Source: a virus. From it: a stretch of DNA of 64,000 nucleotides. Both the position numbers and the translations under genes were made by a program. Of the stretch, positions 4,915-49,125 are shown piece after piece. Below the pieces are notes generated by a model. That model did no database searches. It saw only the letters and a list, made by a program, of their open reading frames with translations, and was not told the origin of the DNA. How positions within the stretch are numbered: the first letter of the stretch is position 1; each line of letters opens with the position of its first letter. The stretch lies in the IMG/VR virus record IMGVR_UViG_3300045988_130750, positions 32,001 through 96,000 of that record; one strand, 5' to 3'.

Positions 4915-4918
4915 ATAA

Positions 4919-4991: not shown

Positions 4992-5052
4992 ATATTTATT
5001 TTTCATAACCTTTACAGAGTGCTTTGAAAAATATAAAGTCAAGTATCTCTAA

Positions 5053-5124
5053 CTGACTCGGTAGGGATTGAACCTACGACATGCAGATTAACAGTCTGCC
5101 GTTCTACCACTGAACTACGAGCCA
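5053..5124 (-). tRNA. tRNA-Asn: tRNA-Asn (anticodon GUU), G3:U70 in acceptor stem
   Basis: Acceptor TGGCTCG/CGAGTCA, D arm GTTC-AGTGGTA-GAAC, anticodon arm GCAGA-CTGTTAA-TCTGC, T arm GTAGG-TTCAATC-CCTAC. Confidence 0.9.
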
Positions 5125-6236: not shown

Positions 6237-7262
6237 CTAAAATCCAAACATGGAATTTATAGTATCTTCCGAATGATCCTTCAAGTATCCCTGTGTGGTA
6301 CTCGGATCTGAATGATGGGCAAATACTTGAACTTGTTCTAATGGAAACTTTTTAGGATTTCCATTCTCATCAAGTAATCGCATATCTGTTCCTTGTGAAA
6401 GACACTCTAACCTAGAATGGCGCATCGTATGTGTAAATATATTACATGGCTCGCCACGCACTTCAGAAAGTATTTTAGAAATACTTACAATTCTGTCGTA
6501 GAGTACACTAGAATCAGCAATAGGTTGTTTGTGATCACCAGAACCTTTAATCCATAATGAATCAATATCATCGTCTCCACGCCATTCTAAATATTTTCTA
6601 ATCAATTCTTTAGTATCATCTAAATATACAAGAGGAAACTTCTTACCTCGTTTACCAATAACAACATTCGTTTTATTTCCATCCAATAATCCATGTTTTT
6701 GTATCTGAAACAACTCGTTTTTTCTGCCAGCAGAATCAAAACCTATGCTCCACAATACGGCTAGTTGCCACTTTTCTTGTGATACTAAAATATCACGAAC
6801 TTTAATAAATTCATCATATGTAAAGAAAAAATCATCATCATCGTCTTTTACACGAGATTTTGGAATACCACGAACTTTTTTGGCATAATTGACCTCATAT
6901 TCATAGTCATCATCATCTTCACAGAATGTAAGCAAACTGTTAATAGAACTTTTAAGTCTATTTGTTCTTGCTGCTGACATTTCACATTCTTCTGTAAAAT
7001 ACAAACTCAAATTACGAAAATCCTTCTTCTTTAATTCGAGAACACAACGATTGTCTAACTCCTTGAGTATGTAAATCATAATAATCCGTAGATCATTGTG
7101 ATATCCTGATATCGTACCTTTACTCATTTTTCGTTGTTTGTATTCTTGAAGAAAATCATCCATTATTCGTTTATTCTCTTTATTAACTTGTTCCCATAAT
7201 TCAGGAGTATAAAAATTATGATATATTCGACCTCTATTTCCCAAAATCTCACTTCCTTTCAA
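6237..7262 (-). CDS. Tyrosine recombinase / phage integrase family
   Basis: 341-aa ORF. C-terminal catalytic pattern THTMRHSRLE...FAHHSDPSTTQGYL (R..H-x-x-R..Y). The start may be the internal TTG at 7244. Confidence 0.8.
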   Translation of the reverse strand: MKGSEILGNRGRIYHNFYTPELWEQVNKENKRIMDDFLQEYKQRKMSKGTISGYHNDLRIIMIYILKELDNRCVLELKKKDFRNLSLYFTEECEMSAARTNRLKSSINSLLTFCEDDDDYEYEVNYAKKVRGIPKSRVKDDDDDFFFTYDEFIKVRDILVSQEKWQLAVLWSIGFDSAGRKNELFQIQKHGLLDGNKTNVVIGKRGKKFPLVYLDDTKELIRKYLEWRGDDDIDSLWIKGSGDHKQPIADSSVLYDRIVSISKILSEVRGEPCNIFTHTMRHSRLECLSQGTDMRLLDENGNPKKFPLEQVQVFAHHSDPSTTQGYLKDHSEDTINSMFGF

Positions 7263-7287
7263 ATCAAAAGAAGCGAAGTAGTAATAA

Positions 7288-8475
7288 CTAGATCACTTCT
7301 TGATAGTCAATAACATTTCTTCCCCATTTAATATCATCTTTATATTTCAATTCACCAATTTTTGATACTTTATTCCAATTGATATTATTCTTAATAAAAG
7401 ACTCAATATTTTTTCTAAGTGCAATAGAATCTTCAACTAGAATTTTATGTATGTTTTCTTTAGTTAGATCACAGGGGAAGAGTATATAATAATTTAAATT
7501 GTTTTCTTTTAACATAGATTGTTTTTCGGATAACTTTTGACGATAAATTTCTTTAGAATTGCTACATGTTATTTCTTTGTTAGAAAAGAAATGGTTCTTA
7601 TACGATTCAATAACTCCAGCAATTTCAATATAAATATTTTTACCATTAATATTAATTAAATAATCACAGTTCATATTTTTATTGTAATTTGGAATAAAAG
7701 ATGAATATTTTACATCTCTTTGATAGTCAACGCCATATTTAAGACCAAAATCACGTAAACACTTAGAAAAAAGATATTCAAATTGACTTGTTACATGTTC
7801 GCCGTCTAGAAAATCAAAAGTAATTCCTCTACCTTGTTTCCCAAGATTTATATTTTCTTTTGATAAAATAGTTTGCAAATCGCAATTGTAATACTTCTTA
7901 ATCGTTTTTTGTAATGTATCAGCATTTAGCCAATTATGATTATTGTCAATTTCTGATGTTGTTATAAAATTACGATTATCATTTTTAACATAGACACAAA
8001 TATCAAGTATCATTTTATCTAGTTCATCTTTAGATAAAGATTTATCTATCATTGATTCTTGAACTATTTCTAATCCAAGTTCCTTTTTCATATTATTAAT
8101 TGTTCCCCAATATTTTTTGATTCCTTCTATGGGTGGATGGTAACATCCTCTTCCTCTAAAGTCATCATACATTAAAGGTCTATCTTTTTCTGATTGTAAT
8201 TTGTAAATCAGTTTTATCATTTTATTCTTTGATGGTGTTTTACCTTTTGCTACAAAACCACACCAATCAACAAAATCAGCCCAAGTTTTAACTGATTCAT
8301 CTGGACAATTATTTATATACCATCTACCATCAGGTAAGTTAAAAGGCTCTTTCCGCAATAAATCATATTTTATTGGTTTGCCTAATTCTTCACTTTTTTG
8401 AACATATTCCCTTACATAATGGTCGTAATCTTCGATATTAAATTCTCTCTGTTTTGTACTTCCCATATTTTTCAC
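7288..8475 (-). CDS. Homing-endonuclease-like protein (two HEAR-like N-terminal repeats, PD-(D/E)xK-like C-terminus)
   Basis: 395-aa ORF. Repeated xxPxxW..F..WCGF / KKYWGTINNMKKELGL modules. C-terminus DYLININGKNIYIEIAG resembles a restriction-endonuclease-fold core. Confidence 0.6.
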   Translation of the reverse strand: MKNMGSTKQREFNIEDYDHYVREYVQKSEELGKPIKYDLLRKEPFNLPDGRWYINNCPDESVKTWADFVDWCGFVAKGKTPSKNKMIKLIYKLQSEKDRPLMYDDFRGRGCYHPPIEGIKKYWGTINNMKKELGLEIVQESMIDKSLSKDELDKMILDICVYVKNDNRNFITTSEIDNNHNWLNADTLQKTIKKYYNCDLQTILSKENINLGKQGRGITFDFLDGEHVTSQFEYLFSKCLRDFGLKYGVDYQRDVKYSSFIPNYNKNMNCDYLININGKNIYIEIAGVIESYKNHFFSNKEITCSNSKEIYRQKLSEKQSMLKENNLNYYILFPCDLTKENIHKILVEDSIALRKNIESFIKNNINWNKVSKIGELKYKDDIKWGRNVIDYQEVI

Positions 8476-8685
8476 CTATGCCTTTCCCTATGCCAACAAC
8501 TAAAAATAGAACAGTAGAAGAGAGGCATAGGTTCTCATATACTTGGTAGCTACTCCAAGTACCTACTGTTCCATAAATCCTCCAACCAGCTATGACACCA
8601 ATCAGAAGCACATATATTTGTTCTCTATTTGTCGCACGACAAATATCAAAAACTTGTTCATATCACATTACTTGAACAAGTTAAG

Positions 8686-8757
8686 CTGGCTCGGTAGGGA
8701 TCGAACCTACGACATCCTGATTAACAGTCAGGCGTTCTACCTCTGAACTACGAGTCA
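8686..8757 (-). tRNA. tRNA-Asn: tRNA-Asn (anticodon GUU), A3-C70 mismatch in acceptor stem
   Basis: Acceptor TGACTCG/CGAGCCA, anticodon arm CCTGA-CTGTTAA-TCAGG, T arm GTAGG-TTCGATC-CCTAC. Confidence 0.85.
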
Positions 8758-8799
8758 ATACAAAAAGAGTGCGCAGCATAAACCACACACTCTAAAAAT

Positions 8800-9474
8800 T
8801 TAAAAAATAAAATCAAGCAAATCAAATAATCTTCCAACCGAATTATATTCGTCAAAATCACTTAAATCAATCGGCTTACTAGAATAAAATTCACGCTTTT
8901 CATATCCATTAACATCACTTTTAACAGAAGTAAATCCGTGAATATTTCCGTTTTCATCTTTATCAAATGTAATATTCTTATGAGAATCATCACTTACGTC
9001 ACTGCAACTGCAATTCTTACAATTGCCATCACAATCATCGTCTACATCTTCAGCGTCCTCACCAATGTTGAATTCATGAATAATGCATCCAGAATATTTA
9101 TTGTCCTTGACAAAAGCTGAACTTACATCTCCATGAATAAATACAATGTCTGTCTCATCCATATTGATATAAGTATCACTTCCCTCATACTTGGCAGCCC
9201 GAACACATACATTCATTTCAGAATCAATACTAAGAATAAATGCATCATCATAACCGTCCAAATAAGGATCATTCAAATCGTTACAAGAAGCAAGTTTAAA
9301 ATTCGTATTTTTAATAACAGAATTAAGAACATCTTTCATCACATCATACTTAGCCACAACTACAATTTCTGAACAATCATCGTCATAATCTCTTGTACAA
9401 ACATCCAGCTTGTCAAAAGTATCTGCTAAAAATTCAGCAAAATCATTTGTATCTGTAAAACCAAATGTTTTCAA
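8800..9474 (-). CDS. Hypothetical acidic Cys-rich protein
   Basis: 224-aa ORF in the co-directional leftward array. DDDCDGNCKNCSCSD cluster. Confidence 0.7.
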   Translation of the reverse strand: MKTFGFTDTNDFAEFLADTFDKLDVCTRDYDDDCSEIVVVAKYDVMKDVLNSVIKNTNFKLASCNDLNDPYLDGYDDAFILSIDSEMNVCVRAAKYEGSDTYINMDETDIVFIHGDVSSAFVKDNKYSGCIIHEFNIGEDAEDVDDDCDGNCKNCSCSDVSDDSHKNITFDKDENGNIHGFTSVKSDVNGYEKREFYSSKPIDLSDFDEYNSVGRLFDLLDFIF

Positions 9475-9495
9475 TATATTTTCACCACCTTAGAA

Positions 9496-9780
9496 TTAGA
9501 GCTGTTTTGCAGACTTTGACATCTTAAAGCAAATCTCATCATGCTGTGGAGTTACATATTCCTCGCCCTTGCGATCACCCATCATAATTTTTCCTCTACG
9601 CTCTGGAACTGTCTTAACCTTAAACTTTCCAAGTTTTCCAACTGCAACTGATTCTGCGTGATTTGCTGTTAATGTCTCTGTGATTACATCAGCAAAAGCA
9701 TCAAGAATAACTGAGATGTCCTTCTGTGAAGCTCCCTCAACTTTATTTACTACTGCCTTTAATACCTCGTTCTTTGTCAT
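9496..9780 (-). CDS. HU/IHF-family DNA-binding protein
   Basis: MTKNEVLKAVV...GKLGKFKVKTVPERRGKIMMGDRKGEEYVTP matches the HU arm pattern GFGxFxV..R.aR.G. ATG at 9780 has AAGGAG 9 nt upstream; the track start at 9804 is a TTG. Confidence 0.8.
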   Translation of the reverse strand: MTKNEVLKAVVNKVEGASQKDISVILDAFADVITETLTANHAESVAVGKLGKFKVKTVPERRGKIMMGDRKGEEYVTPQHDEICFKMSKSAKQL

Positions 9781-9957
9781 TTTAATTTTCTCCTTTTTTC
9801 TCAACTATTTATTTTTTTAATACAAAAAGAGGGTAGTGTTTCATTTGAGTACACTCCCTCCGATACATACAATTGTGACAGCAACATCACAATTTCTATA
9901 CAATCGGACTAATTAAAAGTAGAAAATTAGCCCAATTTTCATAGTTACTTATACATA

Positions 9958-9986
9958 ATATAAAAACCAAGTCACTCGTACTTGGT
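9958..9986 (-). terminator. Rho-independent terminator after the 9987-10982 gene
   Basis: Stem ACCAAGT (9966-9972) / ACTTGGT (9980-9986), followed on the minus strand by TTTTT. Confidence 0.75.
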
Positions 9987-10982
9987 CTACTTTGTCATGA
10001 AATTAGTAATAATTCTTGTCTTGGAATCAATAATGTCACCATTTGAATCCAATGCAAGATACATAAACCCGTTCTGATTTGGAATTATAAGTTTACCGTT
10101 GTTATAATCCAGCTTATCCAAATCACACACACAACCTTGCTCATACATTTTTATTCCACCTTGAGTAAAACTTCCTACTTTATGGGTATGAGCCATTACG
10201 ATTCCAGTAAATGTGCGATCTACACGCAAGAAATAATTGACTGCCTTTTCTGTTGTTTTTAACATACCAGATGAATAATTTAATGGGTGACAGAAAATTA
10301 CATTACCTTCTTTTATCCACCATTCTTTATCATAAACGATTTCAATATTTGAATCTTCAAACACTTCACGAATAGAAGAGTATTGTGTCTGGGTTTTATT
10401 TCTTTCATCATTAACTTTGAATCCATCGTCTACAATCATTTCTAGCGGATCTGTTGGAATGATGCCAAGTAATTCATTTGATAATCTATCAGAACAGTAT
10501 CTTTGCATACGGTATTCATGATTTCCCATCACAAACATTACCTTTTTAGGTGTAGTCAGATTGATTAAATCAATAATATACTGTCTTCCTAAAACAAGTT
10601 CTTCATCAAGATTTATTTTGAATTTTTTAGGAAATGCAGAACATGAAAAACAATCCAATAAATCACCATTGACTATTAAAGTGTCTATAATTCCCTTATA
10701 ACCTGAAAAAATATCAATAGGTAAATTAAACGGAATATGAACATCTGACACACATAAAATTCTTTCAGATGCACCCTCACAGTTGTGAATATAATTATCA
10801 TACTCTTCATATCCAACAGCCTGTTTTCTAAGCTGATCTGGTGTAATATTCAATCCAAGCATATCTCGAATTTCAATCCAATCCATATCTGTCTCTTTAC
10901 GTTTCTTTGCAAGACAACATCTTAATTTCCATTCAAAATCTGTTTCATTTTCTAATCTATGTAAGTCGATTATAATGTCCAC
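9987..10982 (-). CDS. Calcineurin-like metallophosphoesterase
   Basis: Motifs CVSDVHIP, NGDLLD, MGNHEYR and MAHTH in canonical order. Confidence 0.8.
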   Translation of the reverse strand: MDIIIDLHRLENETDFEWKLRCCLAKKRKETDMDWIEIRDMLGLNITPDQLRKQAVGYEEYDNYIHNCEGASERILCVSDVHIPFNLPIDIFSGYKGIIDTLIVNGDLLDCFSCSAFPKKFKINLDEELVLGRQYIIDLINLTTPKKVMFVMGNHEYRMQRYCSDRLSNELLGIIPTDPLEMIVDDGFKVNDERNKTQTQYSSIREVFEDSNIEIVYDKEWWIKEGNVIFCHPLNYSSGMLKTTEKAVNYFLRVDRTFTGIVMAHTHKVGSFTQGGIKMYEQGCVCDLDKLDYNNGKLIIPNQNGFMYLALDSNGDIIDSKTRIITNFMTK

Positions 10983-10992
10983 CTACTCTCTA

Positions 10993-11220
10993 TTACTCTT
11001 CATCAGACGGAACATCCAGCTCCTCATCTGTTTTTAATGCAACAGTAAAATCAATTACCTGATTCTTAAATGATGTAAGCAGATCGGCTACTTTTACTTC
11101 CTGCTCCATATCATTTTCATCAGTATATGTAATAGTAGTACAATCCTCTGAGAGTGTACCTGCCTTTACTGTCAACTTATCTGTAGTTGTTCTTGTAAAT
11201 TTTAATTTACTAGCTGCCAT
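10993..11220 (-). CDS. Hypothetical small acidic protein
   Basis: 75-aa ORF with GGAGGAAAAGGAATTATG start context. Confidence 0.7.
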   Translation of the reverse strand: MAASKLKFTRTTTDKLTVKAGTLSEDCTTITYTDENDMEQEVKVADLLTSFKNQVIDFTVALKTDEELDVPSDEE

Positions 11221-11241
11221 AATTCCTTTTCCTCCATAAAA

Positions 11242-11553
11242 TTAAAAATTCCCACCAGAACGCTTTCTGCCAGGATTATAATACATTTGTTTCGTTTTAT
11301 TCTGTTTTACTTCAATATACTCACGAATCTTCCTAATATAATTTTCATCATAGCTTAAACGAATATGTGACTCCAAATAATAACATCCACAACGAGTAGG
11401 AATTTTATTAGATAACACATTGTCTATAAGCCTATATGACGGGTTAAGATTTGAGAGATGAGTATGCTTTTCTGTATCTTCTTTTCTGCTAATACGATAG
11501 CCATTTTCTGTTCTGTCAATATAAAACCCTTTATAGTGAACTGCCCATTGGCT
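11242..11553 (-). pseudogene. Start-less 103-codon reading frame abutting the IS right end (probable 3' remnant of a disrupted gene)
   Basis: My own translation gives SQWAVHYKGFYIDRTENGYRISRKED...NPGRKRSGGNF*. It is open from the stop at 11554-11556 but has no ATG/GTG/TTG until near the end, so it is absent from the ORF track. Confidence 0.45.
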
Positions 11554-12871
11554 TTAGACAATGGACTTCTTGCTTCATCGTCCTCGTAACCTACTAACTC
11601 CACAAGCGTAAATTCCGATAGTTCCTACCGTACTAAATATCCGTTATGCTGCTTCCAACAGCCTTAATCCTTCATTGAGAATGTTCTTTGCAGCGTTTAT
11701 ATCTCTGTCATGCTTCGTCCCACACTTAGGACAAATCCATTCTCTTACAGATAAATCTTTGGTATTCTTATTGACATATCCACAAATATTACAAAGCTGA
11801 CTAGACGGAACATATCTGCCAATTTTGATATATGTACGCCCATTCCATTCAGCCTTATATGTGAGCTGCCTTGTCAATTCATACCATCCACAATCTGTAA
11901 TTGCTTTAGCAAGATTATGATTCTTTACCATATTAGATACTGCTAAATCCTCACTAACTATCACTTGGTTTTCGCTGATAAGCCGATGTGAAATCTTATG
12001 CAGATTATCAATTCTAGTATTGCGAATCTTTTCGTGCACTCTTGCAAGTTTTATTCTTTGCTTTTGATAATTCTTACTACCTTTTGTTTTATGAGATAAT
12101 TTACGCTGTTCTTTTGCAAGTTTGTTCTCATATTTTTTTATAGTCCGAATATTATTAAATTTTTCTCCATCAGAAGTGATAAGTAAATCCTTAATACCTA
12201 AATCAATACCGACTATACTGCTTGTTTCTGGAAGAACTTCATGGTCAGTTTTGACCAATACAGATACAAAATACTTCCCACTTGGAACTTGTGAAATGGT
12301 GGCTGATTTTATTTTACCGACAAACTCTCTATGAACTTTTGCCTTGACCCATTTCAGTTTTGGAAGTTTGATTCTGTTATTCTCAAAAGAAACTTCGATA
12401 TTTCCATTTGTGAAGTTTGTCTTATAAGACTTTTTATTGTCTCGCTTGCTCTTAAATTTCGGATAACCTGCATGTTCTTTGAAAAATTTCTGATACGCTG
12501 AATCCATGTTAATGACTGCATTATCTAACGCAAATTTATCTACTTCTTTTAACCATAAATATTCGGTTTTCAGAGTCTTGTTCTTCCAGTTATTACAATC
12601 AATCTTACTTAAAGATTCTTTTTTGGTTTCATAAAGATTCCTCCTATATGCAAGCGTCTGATTATATACAAATCTACAACAACCAAAAGTTTTCTGAATC
12701 TGAATTTCTTGCTCTTTGTTTGGATATAGTCTGTATTTATAGGCTTTAAGCATTCACTACTCACCCCATTCTAATATATTCTCTTTTTATTGTGCTTCTC
12801 ACCCATCAGCTAAAGCTAATGGGATTGCGAACCGATTCTTATTTTTTAATTCGATTTTTCATAGACAAAAC
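11540..12871 (-). mobile_element. IS200/IS605-family TnpB-only element (boundaries approximate)
   Basis: tnpB has about 115 nt of upstream and about 100 nt of downstream non-coding ends. Each end carries a subterminal hairpin: CCCATcAGC-TAAA-GCTaATGGG near 12802-12822 and CCATTG-GCTTTAGA-CAATGG near 11545-11564. It interrupts the local gene order. Confidence 0.5.
11644..12753 (-). CDS. tnpB: TnpB (OrfB) RNA-guided nuclease, IS200/IS605 family
   Basis: Begins MLKAYKYRLYPNKEQ. RuvC motifs VGIDLG and VSEDL. Zinc ribbon CNICGYVNK...CPKCGTKHDRDINAAKNI. Confidence 0.9.
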   Translation of the reverse strand: MLKAYKYRLYPNKEQEIQIQKTFGCCRFVYNQTLAYRRNLYETKKESLSKIDCNNWKNKTLKTEYLWLKEVDKFALDNAVINMDSAYQKFFKEHAGYPKFKSKRDNKKSYKTNFTNGNIEVSFENNRIKLPKLKWVKAKVHREFVGKIKSATISQVPSGKYFVSVLVKTDHEVLPETSSIVGIDLGIKDLLITSDGEKFNNIRTIKKYENKLAKEQRKLSHKTKGSKNYQKQRIKLARVHEKIRNTRIDNLHKISHRLISENQVIVSEDLAVSNMVKNHNLAKAITDCGWYELTRQLTYKAEWNGRTYIKIGRYVPSSQLCNICGYVNKNTKDLSVREWICPKCGTKHDRDINAAKNILNEGLRLLEAA

Positions 12872-13042
12872 CTACTTAACATATTTATCTTCAATGTAAC
12901 GTTTTCTTGCAACACCTTTGGTACGATAGTAGCCGACCTGTTCGCCTCTGCGGTCTACATAACCTCGTTTAGTATTACGAATTACACCTTCAGATAATAA
13001 TTTTTCAATTTCACTTTTAGAAATCTGTTTGATAATTTTCAC
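12872..13042 (-). CDS. Hypothetical small basic protein (start uncertain)
   Basis: The track ORF 12872-13111 would start inside tRNA-Lys. The in-frame GTG at 13042 (VKIIKQISKSE...) avoids the overlap. Confidence 0.5.
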   Translation of the reverse strand: MKIIKQISKSEIEKLLSEGVIRNTKRGYVDRRGEQVGYYRTKGVARKRYIEDKYVK

Positions 13043-13080
13043 TTCCTTTGATTTATTTTCTGCTGAATAGCAGAAGAGAG

Positions 13081-13155
13081 TGAGCGTGGAGGGATTTGAA
13101 CCCATCGACAACTCGATTAAAAGTCGAGTGCTCTACCAAACTGAGCTACACACTC
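13081..13155 (-). tRNA. tRNA-Lys: tRNA-Lys (anticodon UUU)
   Basis: Acceptor GAGTGTG/CACGCTC, D arm GCTC-AGTTTGGTA-GAGC, anticodon arm CTCGA-CTTTTAA-TCGAG. The T stem is imperfect (3 GC pairs plus mismatches). Confidence 0.7.
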
Positions 13156-24806: not shown

Positions 24807-24835
24807 TTGACAAGTAGTGATAAAAGTATTATTAT
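24807..24835 (+). promoter_or_regulatory. Sigma-A-type promoter flanked by AAGTAGT half-sites
   Basis: TTGACA at 24807-24812, a 17-nt spacer, TATTAT at 24830-24835. AAGTAGT lies on both sides of the -35. Confidence 0.55.
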
Positions 24836-24902
24836 ATAGTCAAGTCAAGAGGATACAACATGATGGTTGAAACGACATTGACAAAAATATTTTAAATAAC
24901 TA

Positions 24903-24931
24903 TTGACAAACTACTTACAAAGTAGTACAAT
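24903..24931 (+). promoter_or_regulatory. Promoter of the RHH gene with an operator in the spacer
   Basis: TTGACA at 24903-24908, a 17-nt spacer containing the inverted repeat CTACTT-ACA-AAGTAG (24911-24925), TACAAT at 24926-24931. Confidence 0.65.
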
Positions 24932-24955
24932 CTAATTATCAAATAAAGGAGGGAT

Positions 24956-25153
24956 GTGATTACCACGGCAGACAAAAAACAATTAAATACTCCGATACAA
25001 GCTGATATTCTGGATAATTTCAGATTAACTTGTAAAGAGTATAATCTTAATATGAATGTTGTTTTAGAAGCATTACTAAAAGATTTTAGCAATGGCAATT
25101 ATAGTATTATCATCAATAGAGGCAATGATATACAGGTCAAGAAAAATATTTAA
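24956..25153 (+). CDS. Ribbon-helix-helix (Arc/CopG-like) regulator
   Basis: GTG start after AAAGGAGGGA. KQLNTPIQADILDNFRLTCKEYNLNMNVVLEALLKDF fits a strand-helix-helix pattern. Confidence 0.6.
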   Translation: MITTADKKQLNTPIQADILDNFRLTCKEYNLNMNVVLEALLKDFSNGNYSIIINRGNDIQVKKNI

Positions 25154-25155
25154 AA

Positions 25156-25189
25156 ACTACTTGACAAGTAGTAAACAACATGATATATT
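25156..25189 (+). promoter_or_regulatory. Promoter whose -35 is embedded in the perfect palindrome ACTACTTG-A-CAAGTAGT
   Basis: Palindrome at 25156-25172. TTGACA at 25161-25166, a 17-nt spacer, TATATT at 25184-25189. Confidence 0.65.
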
Positions 25190-25442
25190 ATAGTCACAGG
25201 GTAACAAAAAACCCTGTACCACCTAAAAAGATAGTACAGGGCATTTGAAAAGATTGTATAAGTGTATATACAACCTAATCAGAACAATTAGATTATACAA
25301 TTCTTTTCAATAGCTGTCAAGTCCGGCAGTAATAAATCCCTTATTATAAACCAGCACTAAAAATCATAAATAAGTACATTGATAATTGAATAAAGGCTTT
25401 ACACTATGGTATAATACCACTAACGAAAGAAGGTGGTAGAAA

Positions 25443-25580: not shown

Positions 25581-25607
25581 CCAATAGTAACTCTATAAAC
25601 CCTATCT

Positions 25608-25655
25608 AAGGTGTAAAGTCTTTATTGAATTATCAAGGCTTTACACCTTTTTAAT
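25608..25655 (+). terminator. Rho-independent terminator
   Basis: AAGGTGTAAAGTC (25608-25620) pairs with GGCTTTACACCTT (25637-25649), then TTTT. Confidence 0.7.
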
Positions 25656-26248
25656 TATGTTAGCACATCTGTAGACCGGACACCGAACCGGACTTGATAC
25701 CATTAGTCAAGATAGAACCATCCAAGAACGATGTAAAACCTCACGGCTACTTGTACAGCCTACCCGAAGTGGTATAAAAAAAGCTATCATATATAGCAAC
25801 GTACATAGGCACTTGATAGCAGTTATCAAGAGGTCGGATTAATACCTTAAAGAAACAATCCAGTCAAGCCACACTATAGCAGGCACGTAGTAGCAGGAAC
25901 GATAGTTACCTCATAAGTAGTGAAGTCGCTACTTATTACCATTCCGGCGTTGTGTAACCGGCAAGATAGCAACTCATAAACGTATTTAAAAATTCTTTTG
26001 AGTGTTTCACTCATTCAGTGATAGTAAACATTAAATTATATACGAGGTTTATTCTATCACATTTCCAGGTTTGTTTCAAACCATAGAATCTTTAAATATA
26101 GTACCGCTTTTTATGTCAAGCGTTAAAAAATGATAATAAGACATAGTTATAGCAGTGTTCGCAAGCTATGACAAAAATATATACTTTGCACATTATAATA
26201 ATTATCAAGAAGTAACCTATAAGACCAGGCGAAAAAGTTTAAAAATCA

Positions 26249-26336
26249 GGTCATAAAGTGCCAGGCACATTCTACGCTTTTTGAGCGGTGCGTATTAAAA
26301 CGCTTTAGGAAGTCGGTTCAAATCCGACTATGACCT
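26249..26336 (+). other. tRNA-like structure 1 (perfect 7-bp acceptor + canonical T arm, non-tRNA interior)
   Basis: GGTCATA (26249-26255) pairs with TATGACC (26329-26335). T arm GTCGG-TTCAAAT-CCGAC. The 56-nt interior has a direct repeat ACGCTTT x2 competing for one GCGT. Confidence 0.5.
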
Positions 26337-26389
26337 TTTACCCAAAAATATATTGCACTCATGCGTTAAATGGGAGAAAGAAGGATATT

Positions 26390-27187
26390 ATGTTAAAATC
26401 TGAAAAATTCTATTCAAAAACTAATGCACTCAAAGACACTACTTTTGACTTTGCAGGTCATGTTCGTACACTTGTACGCCACACTGAATTATCACGGATG
26501 CAGGATAAGAAGTCATTCAAGGATGGCAAAAAAGCCCTTGAGGATTTACACGCTAATATTGACGTTATGACTTGCGAAAAGTCTATTATCAATGAGGCTT
26601 TAGGTGTAGACGCTGGGCAGTTCATCAAAGACCGTGAAGAGATTATTGCACTTAAGGAAGAAATTGCAAGCCTTCCTATTACTATTGACCAGGTAACTGC
26701 ATTGTGTCCTACTGACCGTGTGCATATTACTTTGATGGCTCATGCTATCTATAAGAATGTACAGCTTGATGCGGATATTTTCGATACTGAAAAAGGCGGT
26801 GTTGATATTTCTAAAGCTATTCACGCTTACTACAGTAAAGGCTCTATTAAGGACTTAAAGGATGCTTTGCGTCCAATATTCAATAAGTTAATCGGTTCTG
26901 AAGGTGACCATTTCTACGGCATTAAACCCAAAAAGTCCGACTTTACCGAAAAAGACCTTCGCAACTTCCTTGCTACTTTTGGCGGTTCTGCTAAACGTGA
27001 GCAGGTCAAGTCTAAAAAGGATGGAGTAGAAACAATCACATTCAAGGATTTTAACTATACAGACAAATCAGGCAATAAAAAAGTACAGATTACAGCCTTT
27101 ACAACTCTTTGTGCAGTAGTCCTTGATAATGCATCAAAACACGAAGTTATTAAACCAGAAGAGAAGAAGAAAGAAGAAGCAAAATAG
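26390..27187 (+). CDS. Hypothetical protein, Lys-rich tail
   Basis: ATG at 26390 after GGGAGAAAGAAGG; the track start at 26330 would lie inside the tRNA-like element. Visibly higher G+C than neighbouring genes. Confidence 0.7.
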   Translation: MLKSEKFYSKTNALKDTTFDFAGHVRTLVRHTELSRMQDKKSFKDGKKALEDLHANIDVMTCEKSIINEALGVDAGQFIKDREEIIALKEEIASLPITIDQVTALCPTDRVHITLMAHAIYKNVQLDADIFDTEKGGVDISKAIHAYYSKGSIKDLKDALRPIFNKLIGSEGDHFYGIKPKKSDFTEKDLRNFLATFGGSAKREQVKSKKDGVETITFKDFNYTDKSGNKKVQITAFTTLCAVVLDNASKHEVIKPEEKKKEEAK

Positions 27188-27235
27188 GATAACGGCTCAC
27201 GCTGGGTTAGCAGGGTTCGATTCCCTGCTTATCCT
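27187..27235 (+). other. tRNA-like structure 2 (acceptor + D-like + T arm, no anticodon arm)
   Basis: GGATAA (27187-27192) pairs with TTATCC (27229-27234). T arm CAGGG-TTCGATT-CCCTG. The D-loop-like GCTCACGCTGGGTTAGC has no room for an anticodon stem. It starts on the last base of the upstream TAG stop. Confidence 0.5.
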
Positions 27236-27295
27236 TTAAAAACTATAAACGCAAATTAGGGCTACAAGTCTGCCCATTTTTAAGGAGGAATCACC

Positions 27296-27769
27296 ATGAT
27301 TAAGCATGAACCAAAATTTTATGTGCGACTTTGCAAGGGGAAATCTGTAAATTTCCCTGATAATTTTACAATCTATCCTGGTTCGATTTATGGACGTTTT
27401 CAAGACTCAAAAGGCAAACGTATTTTCTGGGTGTGTGATTCTTACACACTATCAGATGATAAACTTCCAGTGCATATTTTTAATGGATTATACTGGAAAT
27501 TATGCCTAGTTTCTGTGGATCATCCATGCTATCAGTGGGTAAAGTCTGCGATTGAATCAATGGGTAAAGTGCCTAAAATTCAAAAGGAAAATGTAACTTT
27601 TGATGATTGTAAAAATATGATGAAGTCATATTCTTTGCATAAAAAAGGAATTGGTTCACGGATTAACACGCACCAAATCAACAACCCGTTGCAATGGAAT
27701 GAGGTCACTGAAACTGCGCATTGGTATGGTAAAGGAAACGCAAGCGTAGTTGCGTCAAATATTAGATAG
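27296..27769 (+). CDS. Hypothetical protein
   Basis: 157-aa ORF with AAGGAGGAATCACCATG start context. Confidence 0.75.
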   Translation: MIKHEPKFYVRLCKGKSVNFPDNFTIYPGSIYGRFQDSKGKRIFWVCDSYTLSDDKLPVHIFNGLYWKLCLVSVDHPCYQWVKSAIESMGKVPKIQKENVTFDDCKNMMKSYSLHKKGIGSRINTHQINNPLQWNEVTETAHWYGKGNASVVASNIR

Positions 27770-27784
27770 TTGGAGGGAAATACT

Positions 27785-28024
27785 ATGCTTAACACACTTG
27801 ATATGTACGGGATTTGTCACGAAATTTACAGGGATTTTAGGGGAAAATCTGTCTATGAAAAGACAGATGAAAATATACTTAATGTTATTTTTATGCTTTA
27901 TAATACAACAGAGATAGACTGCGAAGAAATTCGAGATTTATGGATTGAGTACCTTACAAAAGGGAGTTTGTCTATTCCTACAATGATACAACGTGCAAAA
28001 ATGCGCAGTTATAAGGCAAGCTAA
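27785..28024 (+). CDS. Hypothetical small protein
   Basis: ATG at 27785 after GGAGGG; the track start at 27770 is a TTG. Confidence 0.7.
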   Translation: MLNTLDMYGICHEIYRDFRGKSVYEKTDENILNVIFMLYNTTEIDCEEIRDLWIEYLTKGSLSIPTMIQRAKMRSYKAS

Positions 28025-28033
28025 ATACTTGCC

Positions 28034-28083
28034 TTCCGTCTTACGGTGAAAGTCCGTAACCGATGAGCAGAAGCGAAACGGAA
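28034..28083 (+). ncRNA. Hammerhead ribozyme type-III-like motif (one core deviation, U4 to C)
   Basis: TTCCGT-C | TTACGG-TGAAAGT-CCGTAA | CCGATGA | GC-AGAA-GC | GAA | ACGGAA. GUC cleavage triplet, A15.1-U16.1 pair, G10.1-C11.1 pair. The core is CUGAUGA/GAAA except at position 4. Confidence 0.45.
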
Positions 28084-28158
28084 ATTGTAAAGGAGGCTGA
28101 TTATATGGTATCATATTAACTAGGCTATATGCCTAATAAACACAAATGGAGGATTACC

Positions 28159-28422
28159 ATGTTAAAAATCAATGAATGGTCTGTAAACCGTAGAATAGAA
28201 TCTTTACGTCAGATGGATAAAATGCTATCTGAAATGAACGTAGGATCTCGCTATACTATATGGCAGGAATACGGTGGAGGACTAAAGGCAACCGCAGACG
28301 AAACACGCGCAAACTGGAAACGCATTGCAGAAGATGATGAGCTATATCAAAATGCATTATTCTGTTATATGGTTTGCACACTTGAAAAGCAAACTCTCAA
28401 AGGTTGGGAAAACGTAAAATAG
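28159..28422 (+). CDS. Hypothetical small protein
   Basis: ATG at 28159 after AATGGAGG; the track start is 28129. Confidence 0.65.
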   Translation: MLKINEWSVNRRIESLRQMDKMLSEMNVGSRYTIWQEYGGGLKATADETRANWKRIAEDDELYQNALFCYMVCTLEKQTLKGWENVK

Positions 28423-28514
28423 TCTGCGAATTAGGGCAAGGGAAACTTTGCCCTTTTACAAAATGGAAATTATATGCTAGAATTGGAGGTGAAAAAACAT
28501 TGGAGGCATATAAA

Positions 28515-28811
28515 GTGAAAGTAAGTTATAATAGGCTTTTTAACAAGTTAAAAGAAAATAGCGTAACACAAAAGCAATTTAGGGAAACCGTTGGAATTGG
28601 TGGAACTACTATGGCAAAACTAAAAAACAATGAATCAATCACGATAGATACTATATGTAACATTTGTGATTATTTTCGCTGTATGCCTGATGAAATAATG
28701 GAATTTATTCCAGAATCCAATTATCCAGCAGACATTATAGAAAAGCAAAGACAAAAAGAAGAGGTACAATCTCAAATCGCCTCTCTCCAAGCAAAACTAA
28801 AACAAATGTAA
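28515..28811 (+). CDS. XRE-family helix-turn-helix protein
   Basis: GTG at 28515 after TGGAGG. VTQKQFRETVGIGGTTMAKLKNNESITIDTICNICDYF is a Cro/C1-type HTH. The longer track ORF starts at 28404. Confidence 0.7.
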   Translation: MKVSYNRLFNKLKENSVTQKQFRETVGIGGTTMAKLKNNESITIDTICNICDYFRCMPDEIMEFIPESNYPADIIEKQRQKEEVQSQIASLQAKLKQM

Positions 28812-28864
28812 ATAACCATCACCCACAAAGCACCCACGTAGGCAAACTACAAGGAGTAAGGATA

Positions 28865-29155
28865 ATGAGTAAAGCGAAAATAAATCCCAGGGGTTCTTCC
28901 TGGGATGAACTTGAGAAACAGTTGTTTAGTCCACAAGAGATTGCAGAAAGTGAAGCTAGAGTTGCAATTATCAACGAAATGATAAACGCAAGGGAAGAAA
29001 ATGGAATCACACAAAAACAACTTGAAGTAATGAGTGGAATTAAACAACCTGTTATTTCAAGAATGGAAAAGGGAATGACTGATCCACAGTTATCCACGGT
29101 TTTAAAGATTTTAAATTCATTAGGAAAAACAATTAAAATTGTACCTATGAAATAA
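28865..29155 (+). CDS. XRE-family HTH protein (antitoxin-like architecture)
   Basis: 96 aa. ITQKQLEVMSGIKQPVISRMEKGMTDPQLSTVLKILNSLG. Confidence 0.75.
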   Translation: MSKAKINPRGSSWDELEKQLFSPQEIAESEARVAIINEMINAREENGITQKQLEVMSGIKQPVISRMEKGMTDPQLSTVLKILNSLGKTIKIVPMK

Positions 29156-29250
29156 AAAAAGAAAATACATTGCGTAAAAATAAAATGAATAAATTACGGA
29201 GATACTCTGTATATTAGGTATAATATGCAGAGGATAATTAAATGAGCAAT

Positions 29251-45887: not shown

Positions 45888-46095
45888 ATTCTTATAAAAA
45901 ATAAATATTGCAGTCTAACAAAATACAAACGGTATTGGCGTACCTCTTTTGATAGACTGCAAAGTAACACATATAGCAGAATTAAATTCCGCTTGATATT
46001 ATTGTACATAGATTTTATTAGAAAGTCAAGTTTTTAAACAATCAAGCATTTCTGCTAAATATTTCATATTTTACAATTTTAATTAAGAAAATTAT

Positions 46096-46167
46096 AGGAC
46101 TATCGCCAAGCGGTAAGGCACAGGACTTTGACTCCTGCATTCGCTGGTTCGAATCCAGCTAGTCCTG
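46096..46167 (+). tRNA. tRNA-Gln: tRNA-Gln (anticodon UUG)
   Basis: Acceptor AGGACTA/TAGTCCT, anticodon arm CAGGA-CTTTGAC-TCCTG, T arm CTGG-TTCGAAT-CCAG. Confidence 0.9.
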
Positions 46168-46204
46168 TTATATAATTTTACACTAAATCAAAAAAGAAAG
46201 AGGA

Positions 46205-46822
46205 GTGATAATATTGGCACAATATGTTATTACAGATGGTTCTCGTTGGATTATGAAAGATAAAAATGGGAAATTTGTTCCCACATCTTGCGAACCGCTG
46301 GCTGATGTATTTGGTAATAAGGAAGTTAATTCGGTGTATCAAAACAATTTGCCGAAGGCATTGAAATCGGTCTTTCATATCGAGAAGATTGATAAGCCTC
46401 CAAAGTTGGTAAAGCAAATTACACATGCGGAAGTACAAGAGAATACAGAAACGGTGTCGGTTGCAGAAAATATCCAATATTGGGTAGATAAGGTATCTGG
46501 TTTGAATGGACTTGCTGCTGAAGCATTACATAGAAAAGAAGAATTGATTAATCAGTTAAGTGAAGTTGATAAGGAACTTTGCGATATTAATCATTACATA
46601 GAATTTTGCAACTTAAATGCAGCTCAGGGTTATAAAGCATACAAAATGATCAAGGATCGGAGAATAAAGAGACGAAGTATTAAAAATGAGTTGGATGTTC
46701 TTAGTATTATTCTTGGAAAGAAAATATCTGAATCTGTCAGTGATGAATTACAAAAGATGATTAACGGATTAGATGGAAGAAAATATGAGCCAAGAGTAAT
46801 GAATGAGTTATTCGATTTCTAA
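46205..46822 (+). CDS. Hypothetical coiled-coil protein
   Basis: 205-aa ORF with AAGAGGAG SD. The start is either GTG 46205 or TTG 46214. Confidence 0.7.
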   Translation: MIILAQYVITDGSRWIMKDKNGKFVPTSCEPLADVFGNKEVNSVYQNNLPKALKSVFHIEKIDKPPKLVKQITHAEVQENTETVSVAENIQYWVDKVSGLNGLAAEALHRKEELINQLSEVDKELCDINHYIEFCNLNAAQGYKAYKMIKDRRIKRRSIKNELDVLSIILGKKISESVSDELQKMINGLDGRKYEPRVMNELFDF

Positions 46823-46836
46823 ATGAGGTGATAAAA

Positions 46837-47010
46837 ATGATTTGTAGAGATTGTCGTATTCCAATGCAAAATATAATGTCATTTTCATCGGACAAGCATG
46901 AAAAGTTTTGCAGGTGTCCGAAGTGTTTTGGAGAAACCAAGCACACAAAAATCAAAGATGATGACTTAGATTTTGTAGAAGTATTACATAGGGAAATGAA
47001 CAGGAAATAA
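46837..47010 (+). CDS. Small zinc-ribbon protein
   Basis: ATG at 46837 after TGAGGTGA. MICRDCRIPM...CRCPKCFGE. Confidence 0.65.
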   Translation: MICRDCRIPMQNIMSFSSDKHEKFCRCPKCFGETKHTKIKDDDLDFVEVLHREMNRK

Positions 47011-47016
47011 TGTAAG

Positions 47017-49125
47017 GTGGTGTATCAAGTGAACAAAATAGAACTTAACAAAGAACAACTCGCCATAATTGATGAGTATTGTTGCGATGGGATGAAGAAA
47101 CTAAAGAAGTTGTGCGATCCAATTATTATGAAAATTGGTGGGATTAGTGAAAAGGATCACGATGATATTTACAGTTTGGCGCAGTTTCTTCTATATAAAA
47201 GTGTGAAGAATTATGACAAGGATAATGCAAATGGAGCTTCATTTAAGACATTTCTTTACAATATTCTTAGTCGAAGAATTTATGCTACTTATATCAGAGA
47301 TAAGAACCGTCAGTGCCGAAGCAACACGAGAATCGGTAAGAATGGAGAAGTGATATTCATTCCAGATGTTTCGCTTGATGCAGCTACAGAAGAAACACAA
47401 GATATTAAAGAAAAAATTGCATCAGATTATAACGTAGAGGATGCGAGTGAATTTGATTTTACGGTTGATGAGAATGTTGAGAATTTTATGTCGTCATTAA
47501 GTAATATTCAAAGAAAAATACTTGAAATGAAAATGAAAGAAATCCCAACTGATAAGATTAGGTCAGAATTAGGGATTTCAGCAGCTAGGTATGCAAAAGA
47601 AATGGAATCTATCAAACTTAATGAAGGACTGTTAGTGTTTACGAAGAATAGAAAAGAATTTATCGAGGAGGATATGCATATGGAAGAAAGAGTAATGGGA
47701 ATTAGCGAGTCTGAAGGATATAGAATGGATAAGTATTCTATGTTTTCTTTACTTGATATGAAGAAAACAGGTGATATTAACTGTAAGTATATCTTACAGA
47801 GAAAGCCTTTTCAGTGGAGTAACGAGGAGAGAAACAGATATATTTGCAGAATTCTTTCTAATCTTCCAATTCCAGAGATTATTCTTTGTGAACAAAATGT
47901 AAAAGGCATGACGATTTCTCATTTGATTGATGGATTACAACGTTTGTCATATGCTGAAGCATTTAAAGAGAATCATTTCAAGGTTGGAGAGACAGGAGCT
48001 GAGAGGCATTTAATTCAGTATAGAGAGTACATTCATGATGAGAACGGAAATAGAGTTCTTGATGAAGATGGTATCCCAGAATTTGAATTAAAGGTGTGTG
48101 ATATTGTTGGAAAATCATATAAGGATTTGCCTGATGAATTGAAAAAGAGATTTAATAATTTCAATATCAATGTTACAAAATTTTTTAACTGTACAAATGA
48201 ACAGATTGCCGACCATATTCGAGATTACAACAATCACTCAGCTATGAATAATGAACAGTCTGGAATTGTATCAATCTCAACCGATACTGCAAGAAAGATC
48301 AAGACAATCACTGAGAAGTGTGGATTTTTAAAGAATTGTGGTAAATACACCACTACAAACAGGATCAAAGGTAAACTTGATAGAATGGTTGCAGAGATGA
48401 TTATGTTGCTTTTCCATCCGAATGATTGGAAATCTAATGTAAAAGCTACATATAAATATCTTGACGAAAATGCAAAGCAAGAAGAATTCGATACATTATC
48501 TTCTGAATTGGATATGCTTGAATCAGTGATTGAGAATGCTGGCGATGATATCAATGCAATGTTCACTACTACATATACTCCAATGTGGGTTGCAGTATTT
48601 CATAATTTCCTTACAAGCGGTAAAGATTTACATAATTTTGTTGATTTCTTAAATGCATATAATAGTGAACTTAAAGATACAGAAGTTAATGGTGTTTCAA
48701 TGGCAGATTTTAAGGATCAGCAGTCGAAGAAAAAGGCAACTATTACAGGTAAGGTTGATTTGCTTATTCAGCTTATGAATGACTATTTACATATTAATAC
48801 AACCGAAACAGAGAATGATAATACTGAACTTTCAGATGATACAATTCTTAATTTTGTGAAAGAAAATTATAAACCAGATGCAAATGAAGATGATATTAGT
48901 TTTTATTCTGATTTAGTTGATGATTGTGTAAAAATTGATGAACCTGTATATAAAGAATGCCATGCAGCATTAATTACTCTTATGGCATATGCTTGTTCAC
49001 AAGACAAAGATCAAGATTTTGAAAAATGGATTGATAATTACAAAACTAAGTCTGATTTTAGCCCATCGCAAAAGACCAATTTTACATATATGAAGAGAAG
49101 TTTTGATAATTATCTAAATGTATAA
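47017..49125 (+). CDS. Sigma-70-like N-terminal region fused to a DUF262 (ParB-fold, GmrSD-N-like) domain
   Basis: Region-2-like DDIYSLAQFLLYKSVKNYD...FKTFLYNILSRRIYATYIRDKNR. Region-4-like LSNIQRKILEMKM..IPTDKIRSELGIS. Then ILQRKPFQWSNEERNRYICRILSNLPIPEII...LIDGLQRLS. The start may be GTG 47029. Confidence 0.65.
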   Translation: MVYQVNKIELNKEQLAIIDEYCCDGMKKLKKLCDPIIMKIGGISEKDHDDIYSLAQFLLYKSVKNYDKDNANGASFKTFLYNILSRRIYATYIRDKNRQCRSNTRIGKNGEVIFIPDVSLDAATEETQDIKEKIASDYNVEDASEFDFTVDENVENFMSSLSNIQRKILEMKMKEIPTDKIRSELGISAARYAKEMESIKLNEGLLVFTKNRKEFIEEDMHMEERVMGISESEGYRMDKYSMFSLLDMKKTGDINCKYILQRKPFQWSNEERNRYICRILSNLPIPEIILCEQNVKGMTISHLIDGLQRLSYAEAFKENHFKVGETGAERHLIQYREYIHDENGNRVLDEDGIPEFELKVCDIVGKSYKDLPDELKKRFNNFNINVTKFFNCTNEQIADHIRDYNNHSAMNNEQSGIVSISTDTARKIKTITEKCGFLKNCGKYTTTNRIKGKLDRMVAEMIMLLFHPNDWKSNVKATYKYLDENAKQEEFDTLSSELDMLESVIENAGDDINAMFTTTYTPMWVAVFHNFLTSGKDLHNFVDFLNAYNSELKDTEVNGVSMADFKDQQSKKKATITGKVDLLIQLMNDYLHINTTETENDNTELSDDTILNFVKENYKPDANEDDISFYSDLVDDCVKIDEPVYKECHAALITLMAYACSQDKDQDFEKWIDNYKTKSDFSPSQKTNFTYMKRSFDNYLNV

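Follow-up and report, generated by a model that had tools for sequence, protein, structure and literature searches.

Two covarying tRNA-like RNA elements flank a single gene in a group of phages known from metagenomes

A stretch of 64,000 nucleotides of DNA from an uncultured gut phage (positions 32,001 to 96,000 of IMG/VR record IMGVR_UViG_3300045988_130750; hereafter the window) contains a gene for a protein of 265 amino acids (aa) that is bracketed by two tRNA-like structures (TLS), TLS1 in front of the gene and TLS2 at its stop codon. The locus raises the question of whether these are genuine RNA elements and, if they are, what they could do for a single phage gene. An initial annotation had proposed that they serve tRNA-punctuation-style processing or 3′ tagging of one operon, or alternatively that they are remnants of tRNA genes or att sites. 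We find that TLS1 and TLS2 are real structured RNAs, neither chance resemblances nor relics, and that covariation is the decisive evidence; their coordinates and those of the surrounding features are collected in Table 1.

TLS1 has the 7-bp acceptor stem originally described (GGTCATA, 26249–26255, with TATGACC, 26329–26335), stacked on a T arm composed of GTCGG (26312–26316), a TTCAAAT loop and CCGAC (26324–26328), also as described. The base at 26336, with which the initial annotation closed the element, is an unpaired U past the acceptor in the discriminator position, and it could also pair with A26248. The 56-nt interior (26256–26311) had been considered unable to form a D arm; this is contradicted by a covarying 3-bp hairpin with a (C)CAGG loop and by two further covarying hairpins. 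Across relatives the D-like hairpin is 3 bp with the (C)CAGG loop conserved, hairpin 2 has 3–5 bp and a U-rich loop of 4–8 nt, and hairpin 3 has 4–5 bp and nearly always carries UUAA in its loop (the IMG/VR variants have UUAA, and one metagenome variant has UUCAA); the helices are linked by the conserved single strands UU, AGUCUA, and UUURAGAR. The D-like hairpin is a shrunken D arm, and its GG could contact the T loop. The interior had also been read as a switch in which two copies of ACGCTTT compete for one GCGT. Both copies (26274–26280 and 26300–26306) and the GCGT (26290–26293) are present. In this one phage the first copy supplies the 5′ strand of hairpin 2 and the second copy the 3′ strand of hairpin 3, but hairpins 2 and 3 are unrelated in sequence in other phages (for example CCC/GGG and UACGG/CCGUA), so that the competition is not conserved and the switch interpretation fails. 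The folding z-score of TLS1 is −3.58, and the element ends 54 nt before the ATG of the gene, on the same strand. A pairing between the hairpin-3 UUAA and a GUUAAA preceding the Shine-Dalgarno sequence was considered and rejected, as the downstream motif is absent from several TLS1-bearing phages and the loop is UUCAA in one variant.

TLS2 is a three-way junction of an acceptor, one hairpin, a variable-loop-like linker (AGGUGU), and a T arm, with a folding z-score of −3.15. Its acceptor (GGATAA, 27187–27192, with TTATCC, 27229–27234) starts, as had been noticed, on G27187, the final base of the TAG stop codon (27185–27187); a seventh pair is available from A27186–U27235, and U27235 occupies the discriminator position. 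The T arm has the TTCGATT loop reported earlier, closed by a stem of 6 bp (GCAGGG, 27210–27215, with CCCTGC, 27223–27228) rather than by the 5-bp CAGGG/CCCTG first proposed. In relatives the inner hairpin often has a GNRA-like tetraloop (GCAA, GUAA), and in some phages it is absent altogether, leaving a 38–40-nt minihelix with a 9-nt bulge containing GG; with either a tetraloop-capped hairpin or none, TLS2 has no anticodon loop of any kind, consistent with its first description. TLS2 overlaps the stop codon in about 25 loci, and we rejected this overlap as a general feature, the distance from stop codon to TLS2 ranging from −1 to +46 nt across loci.

Approximately 50 loci were fetched through the flanked protein from IMG/VR, ENA, Logan, and NCBI assemblies, on phage contigs of 50–215 kb and with protein identities ranging from 100% to 28%. 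TLS1 is present 5′ of the gene in all of these but L038, L085, and L087, whose contexts diverge most, and its acceptors include GGTCATA/TATGACC, AGTCGCA/TGCGACT, AGCCGTG/CACGGCT, TCCCATG/CATGGGA, AGCTATA/TATAGCT, and AGCCGGG/CCCGGCT. Both elements are found in 34 of 51 loci by strict perfect-stem criteria, and most of the other loci have single-mismatch or deletion variants that the covariance models still recognize. In a structure-based alignment of 19 distinct TLS1 sequences (a MAFFT version was also made), 97.3% of cells are paired and both sides have changed in 18 of the 22 pairs. None of 500 shuffles was as good for percent paired, for covariation score, or for the number of pairs changed on both sides, and in a control in which the 3′ partners were slid by 1–3 columns pairing falls to 30–42%. 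For TLS2, 96.7% of cells are paired and 12 of 19 pairs have changed on both sides. All seven acceptor pairs covary in TLS1 and six of seven in TLS2, both strands being present in each. Conservation and structural covariation in related phages, on which the initial annotation had made its proposal depend, are upheld for the two elements alike. Both RNAs are placed on the strand of the gene by their G-U pairs, since the opposite strand would have A-C mismatches there.

Three features are invariant across all forms: the acceptor and T arm stack as 7+5, 6+6, or 5+6 bp, the T loop reads GGTTCRAWTCC, and GG is present in a loop or in a linker. The bodies vary from an 87-nt five-helix form, through a four-helix form of about 65 nt (the shorter TLS1 of the most divergent branch) and a three-helix form of about 50 nt, to a bare minihelix of 38–40 nt, and one contig has two minihelix elements 5′ of the gene and none 3′. 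Divergent TLS2 forms identified with a stem/loop script include GGTATA/TATACC with T arm GTGGG/CCCAC, GGTCAC/GTGACC with GGACGG/CCGTCC, GGGTG/CACCC with CCGGGG/CCCCGG, and AAACCAT/ATGGTTT with GGGCGG/CCGCCC; the divergent TLS2 elements of L033, L074, and L075–77 are missed by the TLS2 covariance model and were recovered by this script. In 11 of 20 TLS1 variants a 5–7-bp hairpin begins 1–4 nt past the discriminator. Such hairpins, followed by an A-run, are seen at L024 3916–3935, L037 2912–2930, L069 2909–2926, L071 2914–2929, and L074 1096–1111; in the window type of TLS1 the sequence UUUACCCAAAAA stands in place of this hairpin. A TLS1 deletion variant without hairpin 3 and with a shortened T loop (GGGTCATTCC) occurs in L025/L026 (3847–3913) and in six metagenome loci (L181, L185, L187, L193, L204, and L205); L025 has a hammerhead in place of TLS2, and L026 has only a hairpin after the gene. 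Kept in several independent assemblies, this variant is either tolerated or decaying.

The elements are also specific to this gene. When the two strands of the window were scanned for T arms with a 7-bp acceptor, the search found only TLS1, TLS2, six real tRNAs (two of which also matched in extended alternative registers), and one further match at 51573–51633, which is presumably due to chance. Covariance model R1 scores TLS1 at 82 bits (E 4e-18) and model R2 scores TLS2 at 62.4 bits (E 2e-15); with filters off as well, each finds a single copy in the window, the next-best matches being the phage's real tRNAs. Rfam 15 has no matching model for either element. When the TLS1 core motif is searched across IMG/VR, about half of the matches are chance occurrences removed by structure, the full structures are confined to contigs of this phage group, and every structurally complete copy sits directly 5′ of a homologue of the 265-aa protein. 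The same motif gave 27 matches in a metagenome collection, 24 of them with a homologue of the protein (38–75% identity) immediately 3′; the remaining three are chance matches, since they have neither the structure nor the gene.

The flanked gene offers few clues of its own. The start codon is the ATG at 26390, preceded by a Shine-Dalgarno sequence; an alternative in-frame ATG at 26330 was rejected, as it lies inside the TLS1 acceptor strand and is absent in relatives. The protein belongs to no Pfam or PHROG family, and its relatives form 86 unnamed clusters among 5.8 billion proteins. The AlphaFold model is confident (a pLDDT score of 89), and Foldseek searches with it give no match in PDB and only uncharacterized Siphoviridae proteins in BFVD. 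Neither the DNA of the region (25600–29200) nor the protein in a tblastn search has a match among 50,697 deposited phages, and the phage group is known only from metagenomes.

The strongest hint as to what the TLS2 position requires comes from phages that have replaced the element. TLS2 is absent in L024, L025, L027, and L028, and in its place is a strong hairpin together with a hammerhead with a complete core (a GUC site, CUGAUGAG, and CGAAAC), lying between the same stop-codon region and the same hairpin with a GCUAYAAGUCU loop. The L024 version scores 23.6 bits against Rfam Hammerhead_3 (E 0.007 in a 300-nt search), below the gathering threshold of 48.5. Because a self-cleaving RNA substitutes for TLS2 there, cutting appears to be what this position needs. 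In the distant homologues L085 and L087 the TLS2 position is occupied by plain terminators. The loop motif GCUAYAAGUCU is conserved both 3′ of TLS2 and 3′ of the hammerhead that replaces it, and it may be where a phage RNA-binding protein attaches; the corresponding hairpin in the window is not called in a terminator scan. The motif is also found in the hairpin preceding the hammerhead in the L024 group (L024 ~4790–4822).

Other ribozyme-like elements lie in the same operon. The hammerhead-like fold noted at 28034 in the initial annotation is present in the window and conserved in many relatives, with stem III UUCCG/CGGAA, a GUC site ending at 28040, stem I at 28041–28059, the core CCGAUGA (28060–28066), stem II at 28067–28074, and GAAA at 28075–28078, but it has a C in the core where U4 is expected and scores poorly (12.4 bits on the type II model, below Rfam thresholds), so that its self-cleavage activity is uncertain. 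The CCGAUGA variant is kept in many relatives, always after a hairpin, including phages in which the TLS-flanked gene is only 39% identical. Examples are at L037 ~4620–4700, L042 ~5460–5540, and L078 ~5250–5330, with a 5-bp stem III and a GUC or GUU site; the canonical CUGAUGA version is seen only at the TLS2 position of the L024 group. Ribozymes of the hepatitis delta virus (HDV)-like type (RF02682, HDV-F-prausnitzii) occupy intergenic positions in the same rightward operon of L040 (5566–5635) and L070 (4876–4945), with scores of 44.1 and 46.0 bits against a gathering threshold of 44; none was found in the window.

The phage also carries tRNA genes of its own. There are eight in the window (Trp, Glu, Asn ×2, Lys, Gln ×2, and Met), at 4665–13155 on the minus strand and 46095–49400 on the plus strand. 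None of the eight encodes CCA, and most are trailed by UUA or a similar short U/A-rich sequence; the mimics lack CCA too, and their trailers resemble those of the tRNAs (U followed by UUUACC in TLS1, U followed by UUAAAA in TLS2). The host is probably a member of the Bacillota, given the strong AGGAGG-type ribosome-binding sites and the HDV-F-prausnitzii family matches, and in Bacillota the substrates of RNase Z are CCA-less precursors with a U past the discriminator. The tRNA genes are scattered singly between same-strand open reading frames and are not all clustered; releasing these tRNAs must therefore already cut mRNAs. A protein with a GmrSD_N domain (47092–49125) is encoded between tRNA genes. 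The CCA-adding enzyme that the phage had been said to encode is confirmed by its Pfam matches, and together with the genes on either side of it (52208–55512) it probably constitutes an RNA-end repair module with a conceivable link to the mimics.

We now consider what these elements might do. The interpretation that we favor, and to which we give a little less than an even chance, is that TLS1 and TLS2 are cis-acting, non-decoding tRNA mimics that RNase Z, a CCA-adding enzyme, and perhaps RNase P treat as precursor tRNAs. The constant part of the mimics, the acceptor/T-arm stack with a GG loop, is what these enzymes read. Both elements would be transcribed within the mRNA of one early phage gene, and in each the stack and GG loop could form a tRNA elbow, such that the enzymes maturing the phage's CCA-less tRNAs would process it as they do a pre-tRNA. 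An RNase Z-type cut would fall after the unpaired U beyond each acceptor stem, RNase P might cut at the 5′ edge, and the host or phage CCA-adding enzyme might extend the new 3′ end. The gene's message would thereby be cut free of both its leader and the cistrons downstream, TLS2 would stay on the 3′ end of the message as an exonuclease-resistant cap, and TLS1 would be freed as a small stable RNA; the hairpin found after TLS1 in about half of the variants would lie at the position needing 5′ protection after the RNase Z cut. We infer recognition by the three enzymes, the cleavage sites, and the effect on mRNA stability from indirect evidence: the exchange of TLS2 for a hammerhead, the HDV-like ribozymes, the CCA-less tRNA trailers, and the proximity of the CCA enzyme to an RlaP-family protein. 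In its most extended form, in which mimics interchangeable with self-cleaving ribozymes hand one early mRNA to tRNA maturation and the tRNA-shaped 3′ end is tagged or rebuilt by the phage's CCA-adding and RNA-repair enzymes, the proposal is rather doubtful.

Several observations weigh against processing. The mimics flank only one gene and no other cistron, so that punctuation of an operon, as first suggested, does not describe them, and a general punctuation mechanism leaves this restriction unexplained. The long form of TLS1 conserves the AGUCUA spacer, the hairpin-3 loop, and UUURAGAR beyond the needs of RNase P and RNase Z, which indicates a specific fold or binding partner. In the loci where element and stop codon overlap, RNase P cutting at the TLS2 5′ edge would take away some of the TAG and leave a non-stop message without a 3′ hairpin. 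The window type of TLS1 has no hairpin immediately 3′, and all of the enzyme steps are deduced from sequence. The limitation to one gene, the excess conservation of TLS1, and the loss of the stop codon keep alive two alternatives, in which the mimics act in trans or remain uncut.

According to the former, which we consider unlikely though worth serious attention, the mimics are mainly trans-acting small RNAs that, either freed or within the mRNA, bind a tRNA-binding protein as a decoy, an inhibitor, or a cofactor; the partner could be a host tRNA-targeting defense enzyme, a translation or tRNA-modification factor, or the flanked 265-aa protein itself, and processing would be compatible with such a role. 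The exclusive link to one protein family (all complete IMG/VR copies of TLS1 and all 24 genuine metagenome matches) is readily accommodated, as are the conservation of junction strands and hairpin-3 loop in long-form TLS1 well past the minihelix and the early, promoter-near location amid helix-turn-helix regulators. Lys, Glu, Gln, and Asn tRNAs are the usual targets of anticodon nucleases, and the presence of these same four in the phage tRNA set indicates tRNA-related pressure on the phage; it is a possibility that released mimics act as decoys against tRNA-targeting host defenses. Against this, a self-cleaving ribozyme, a plain hairpin, or a terminator can stand in for TLS2, the bodies of both mimics are very plastic, down to a bare minihelix, the 265-aa protein has no recognizable RNA-binding fold, and no candidate partner has been identified. 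Less probable again is that the elements remain uncut and act as structured 5′ and 3′ caps, as a transcription attenuator, or as a translational operator of this gene, for example by blocking exonucleases, by pausing RNA polymerase, or, like the thrS operator of E. coli, by attracting a repressor that recognizes the shape of a tRNA. The placement of one mimic in the 5′ untranslated region and the other right past the stop codon fits this well, as does the covarying hairpin abutting the Shine-Dalgarno sequence; the terminator scan flags the TLS2 T arm and U-rich tail as terminator-like, and plain terminators take the TLS2 position in distant homologues. However, a cap or terminator needs neither a conserved T-loop sequence nor an elbow-forming GG, the U tract past TLS2 is only 3 nt with an acceptor strand between it and the T arm, and the substitution of TLS2 by a self-cleaving ribozyme indicates cutting.

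Two further readings have far less to commend them. That TLS1 is a decoding tRNA with a long extra arm, a tRNA-Lys(UUU) or an ochre suppressor (UUA), is largely refuted. It draws on the next-best matches of model R1, which are real tRNAs, and on ARAGORN, which calls the TLS1 homologue a tRNA in five of 12 relatives (Lys-ttt in L040, L074, and L042, Stop-tta in L071, and undefined in L010), and both elements do have the acceptor (7 bp in TLS1, 6 or 7 bp in TLS2), T stem (5 and 6 bp), and GTTCRANNC-type T loop of canonical tRNAs. But there is no 7-nt anticodon loop with U33 and a constant anticodon: the loop of TLS1 hairpin 2 varies from 4 to 8 nt, on a stem of only 3–5 pairs, and the 'anticodon' is UUU, UUA, or undefined among close relatives; 4–6 nt, not 1, lie between the D-like and 'anticodon' helices, and 7–8 nt precede the T stem. 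From the inconsistent anticodons, the variable loop, and the odd spacers we conclude that TLS1 is a tRNA-shaped mimic with a long extra arm and not a decoder. Variants without hairpin 3 persist, and TLS2 lacks an anticodon loop entirely. ARAGORN and Rfam find the eight tRNAs of the window and neither TLS1 nor TLS2, and in a 3-kb search the Rfam tRNA model RF00005 (canonical tRNA threshold 29 bits) matches neither even at E ≤ 10. There is likewise no tmRNA, either from ARAGORN in the window or from Rfam, and the acceptor strands of each element lie within 48–87 nt. Even less credible is a reading of the mimics as functionless remains, either tRNA genes in decay or relics of att sites, which covariation refutes. 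Descent from tRNA genes is very likely, and the acceptor of TLS2 and its variable-loop-like AGGUC resemble the corresponding parts of the phage's own tRNA-Met (whose acceptor is GGAUCAU/AUGAUCC), but compensatory changes are kept in homologues down to 39% protein identity. Neither 3′ half (22 nt of TLS2, 21 nt of TLS1) has an exact match in 185,579 species-representative genomes, a set from which the true host strain may be absent; given this lack of a match and covariation in both strands of the acceptor, the elements can be read neither as att cores nor as pseudogenes.

Table 1. Features of the TLS-flanked gene, its surroundings, and the RNA-repair region (positions in the window).
Feature	Position	Strand	Basis or remark
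Putative regulated promoter of the TLS1-gene transcript	26188–26213	+	Operator-like half-palindrome (..ATTATCAAG) overlapping TATAAT 26194–26199
TLS1, five-helix tRNA mimic, 87 nt	26249–26335	+	Sequence, minimum free energy fold, covariance model, covariation
TLS1 D-like hairpin	26258–60/26266–68	+	3 bp, CCAGG loop
TLS1 hairpin 2	26275–77/26285–87	+	U-rich loop
TLS1 hairpin 3	26290–93/26300–03	+	AUUAAA loop
Small hairpin CUCAU-GCGUUAA-AUGGG	26358–26374	+	Abuts the gene's Shine-Dalgarno region
Bracketed gene, 265-aa protein of unknown function	26390–27187	+	Homology and structure searches
TLS2, three-helix tRNA mimic, 48 nt	27187–27234	+	Sequence, fold, covariance model, covariation
TLS2 inner hairpin	27193–96/27201–04	+	UCAC loop
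TLS2 linker GGUUA	27205–09	+	
Hairpin GGGC-UACAAGUCU-GCCC, then AUUUUU	27259–27281	+	Before Shine-Dalgarno 27282–27288 of next gene (ATG 27296)
Hairpin GGCAAG-CUAAAUA-CUUGCC (28015–28033) and hammerhead-like element (28034–28083)	28015–28083	+	Hairpin holds the TAA stop of the upstream gene
RlaP-family RNA-repair nucleotidyltransferase	52208–53236		Pfam; adjoins CCA-adding enzyme
CCA-adding-type tRNA nucleotidyltransferase with HD domain	53226–54602	+	PolyA_pol E 4e-39, tRNA_NucTran2_2 E 3e-15
Protein with weak DHHA1 match	54595–55512		E 6.5e-4, 20.6 bits, below Pfam cut-off of 25.9 bits

Examination of the sequences around the gene provides some indication of how the transcript may be controlled. 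An operator-like repeat, CTTGATA-N-TATCAAG, is present in three copies (25690, 25809, and 26188), the last of these at a putative regulated promoter for TLS1 and the gene; the sigma-70 matches there are weak, and the sequence GCACATTAYAATAAT is kept in relatives. The small hairpin between TLS1 and the gene retains its pairing in variants with the stems CUCAU/AUGAG, CCCAU/AUGGG, CCCAC/GUGGG, UCUG/CAGA, and GCUAUG/CAUAGC, a pattern suggesting that it may be a translational control element. The impression that the operon is G+C-rich is borne out, at 35–40% over 25.5–28.5 kb versus 25–29% upstream and 32–35% downstream.

Further upstream, the AT skew changes sign near 24.5 kb, at the point of divergence between the leftward and the rightward gene blocks. 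A cluster of several near-consensus sigma-70 promoters occupies 24807–25415, and a strong hairpin with a T-run (25608–25656) closes a first small rightward unit before the TLS1 region. The gene-free stretch of about 600 nt 5′ of TLS1 (25658–26250) is about 77% conserved in L010, L011, and L019, and a block within it (25802–25887) is conserved in L024 and L033 too; in relatives the gene-free gap 5′ of TLS1 is 1.6–1.75 kb and adjoins a divergent DUF3825 gene.

If the processing interpretation is correct, the locus would provide a bacterial mRNA with a maintained end, excised from a polycistronic precursor. The exchange of TLS2 for a hammerhead suggests a role for the small self-cleaving ribozymes of phages in separating and capping cistrons, and the CCA-adding enzyme and RNA-repair genes of gut phages may by the same token serve beyond the upkeep of their own tRNAs. 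The bare minihelices of 38–50 nt would be compact natural processing tags, which could find use in bacterial synthetic biology.

Literature searches found no description of phage tRNA-like processing elements, only analogies. In animal mitochondrial tRNA punctuation and in phage tRNA-ribozyme units, tRNA-shaped units or small ribozymes within polycistronic transcripts define RNA ends; those units are decoding tRNAs, with theta ribozymes trimming tRNA 3′ trailers, whereas TLS1 and TLS2 do not decode and bracket an mRNA. The gut phages that carry theta ribozymes share this genomic setting, with CCA-less tRNAs, small ribozymes, and enrichment of a CCA-adding enzyme (PMC10879173); the terms 'tRNA-like' and 'hammerhead' do not occur in the text of that study. 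The 3′ TLSs of plant RNA viruses and tmRNA similarly mimic the acceptor and T arm without a decoding anticodon arm and have a GG-containing stand-in for the D loop. The plant viral structures, unlike those described here, lie at a genome 3′ terminus and have a CCA end and a pseudoknotted acceptor, and neither TLS1 nor TLS2 matches an Rfam viral TLS model; in tmRNA a long body with a tag reading frame splits the acceptor strands, also unlike TLS1 and TLS2. A small tRNA-like fold toward the 3′ end of a longer transcript is likewise seen in the mascRNA of MALAT1 and in MEN-beta, where it is read by RNase P, RNase Z, and the CCA-adding enzyme, and the mascRNA-menRNA family (RF01684) is the only Rfam match to TLS2 (27188–27233), at 16.5 bits and E 8.3 against a gathering threshold of 42.5 bits, a score that does not amount to homology. 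There the transcripts are vertebrate nuclear long non-coding RNAs in which a triple helix protects the upstream 3′ end, a protection that has no counterpart upstream of TLS2. Both this system and mitochondrial tRNA punctuation operate on the same principle but are unrelated to the phage elements.

The closest known system is that of the plant-mitochondrial t-elements, non-canonical tRNA-like structures with a GGTTCRANYCC motif at the 5′ and 3′ ends of mRNAs, for which cleavage by RNase Z and RNase P and C/A tailing have been proposed and partly shown, and which at nad6 and ccmC leave an mRNA that loses its stop codon (Forner et al. 2007, PMC1920247). TLS1 and TLS2 share with them the T-arm motif (matched by GGTTCAAATCC in TLS1 and by GGTTCGATTCC in TLS2; in both, an acceptor-like stem closes the motif and the cloverleaf is otherwise non-canonical) and a placement just 5′ or 3′ of a coding region. 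The t-elements are organellar and dispersed at several genes, with mapped ends, whereas the phage elements belong to one gene family of a DNA phage and are known from sequence alone; unlike t-elements, they show strong covariation and are interchangeable with a hammerhead, and they would be the first family of tRNA-like cis elements in the mRNAs of phages to have support from covariation.

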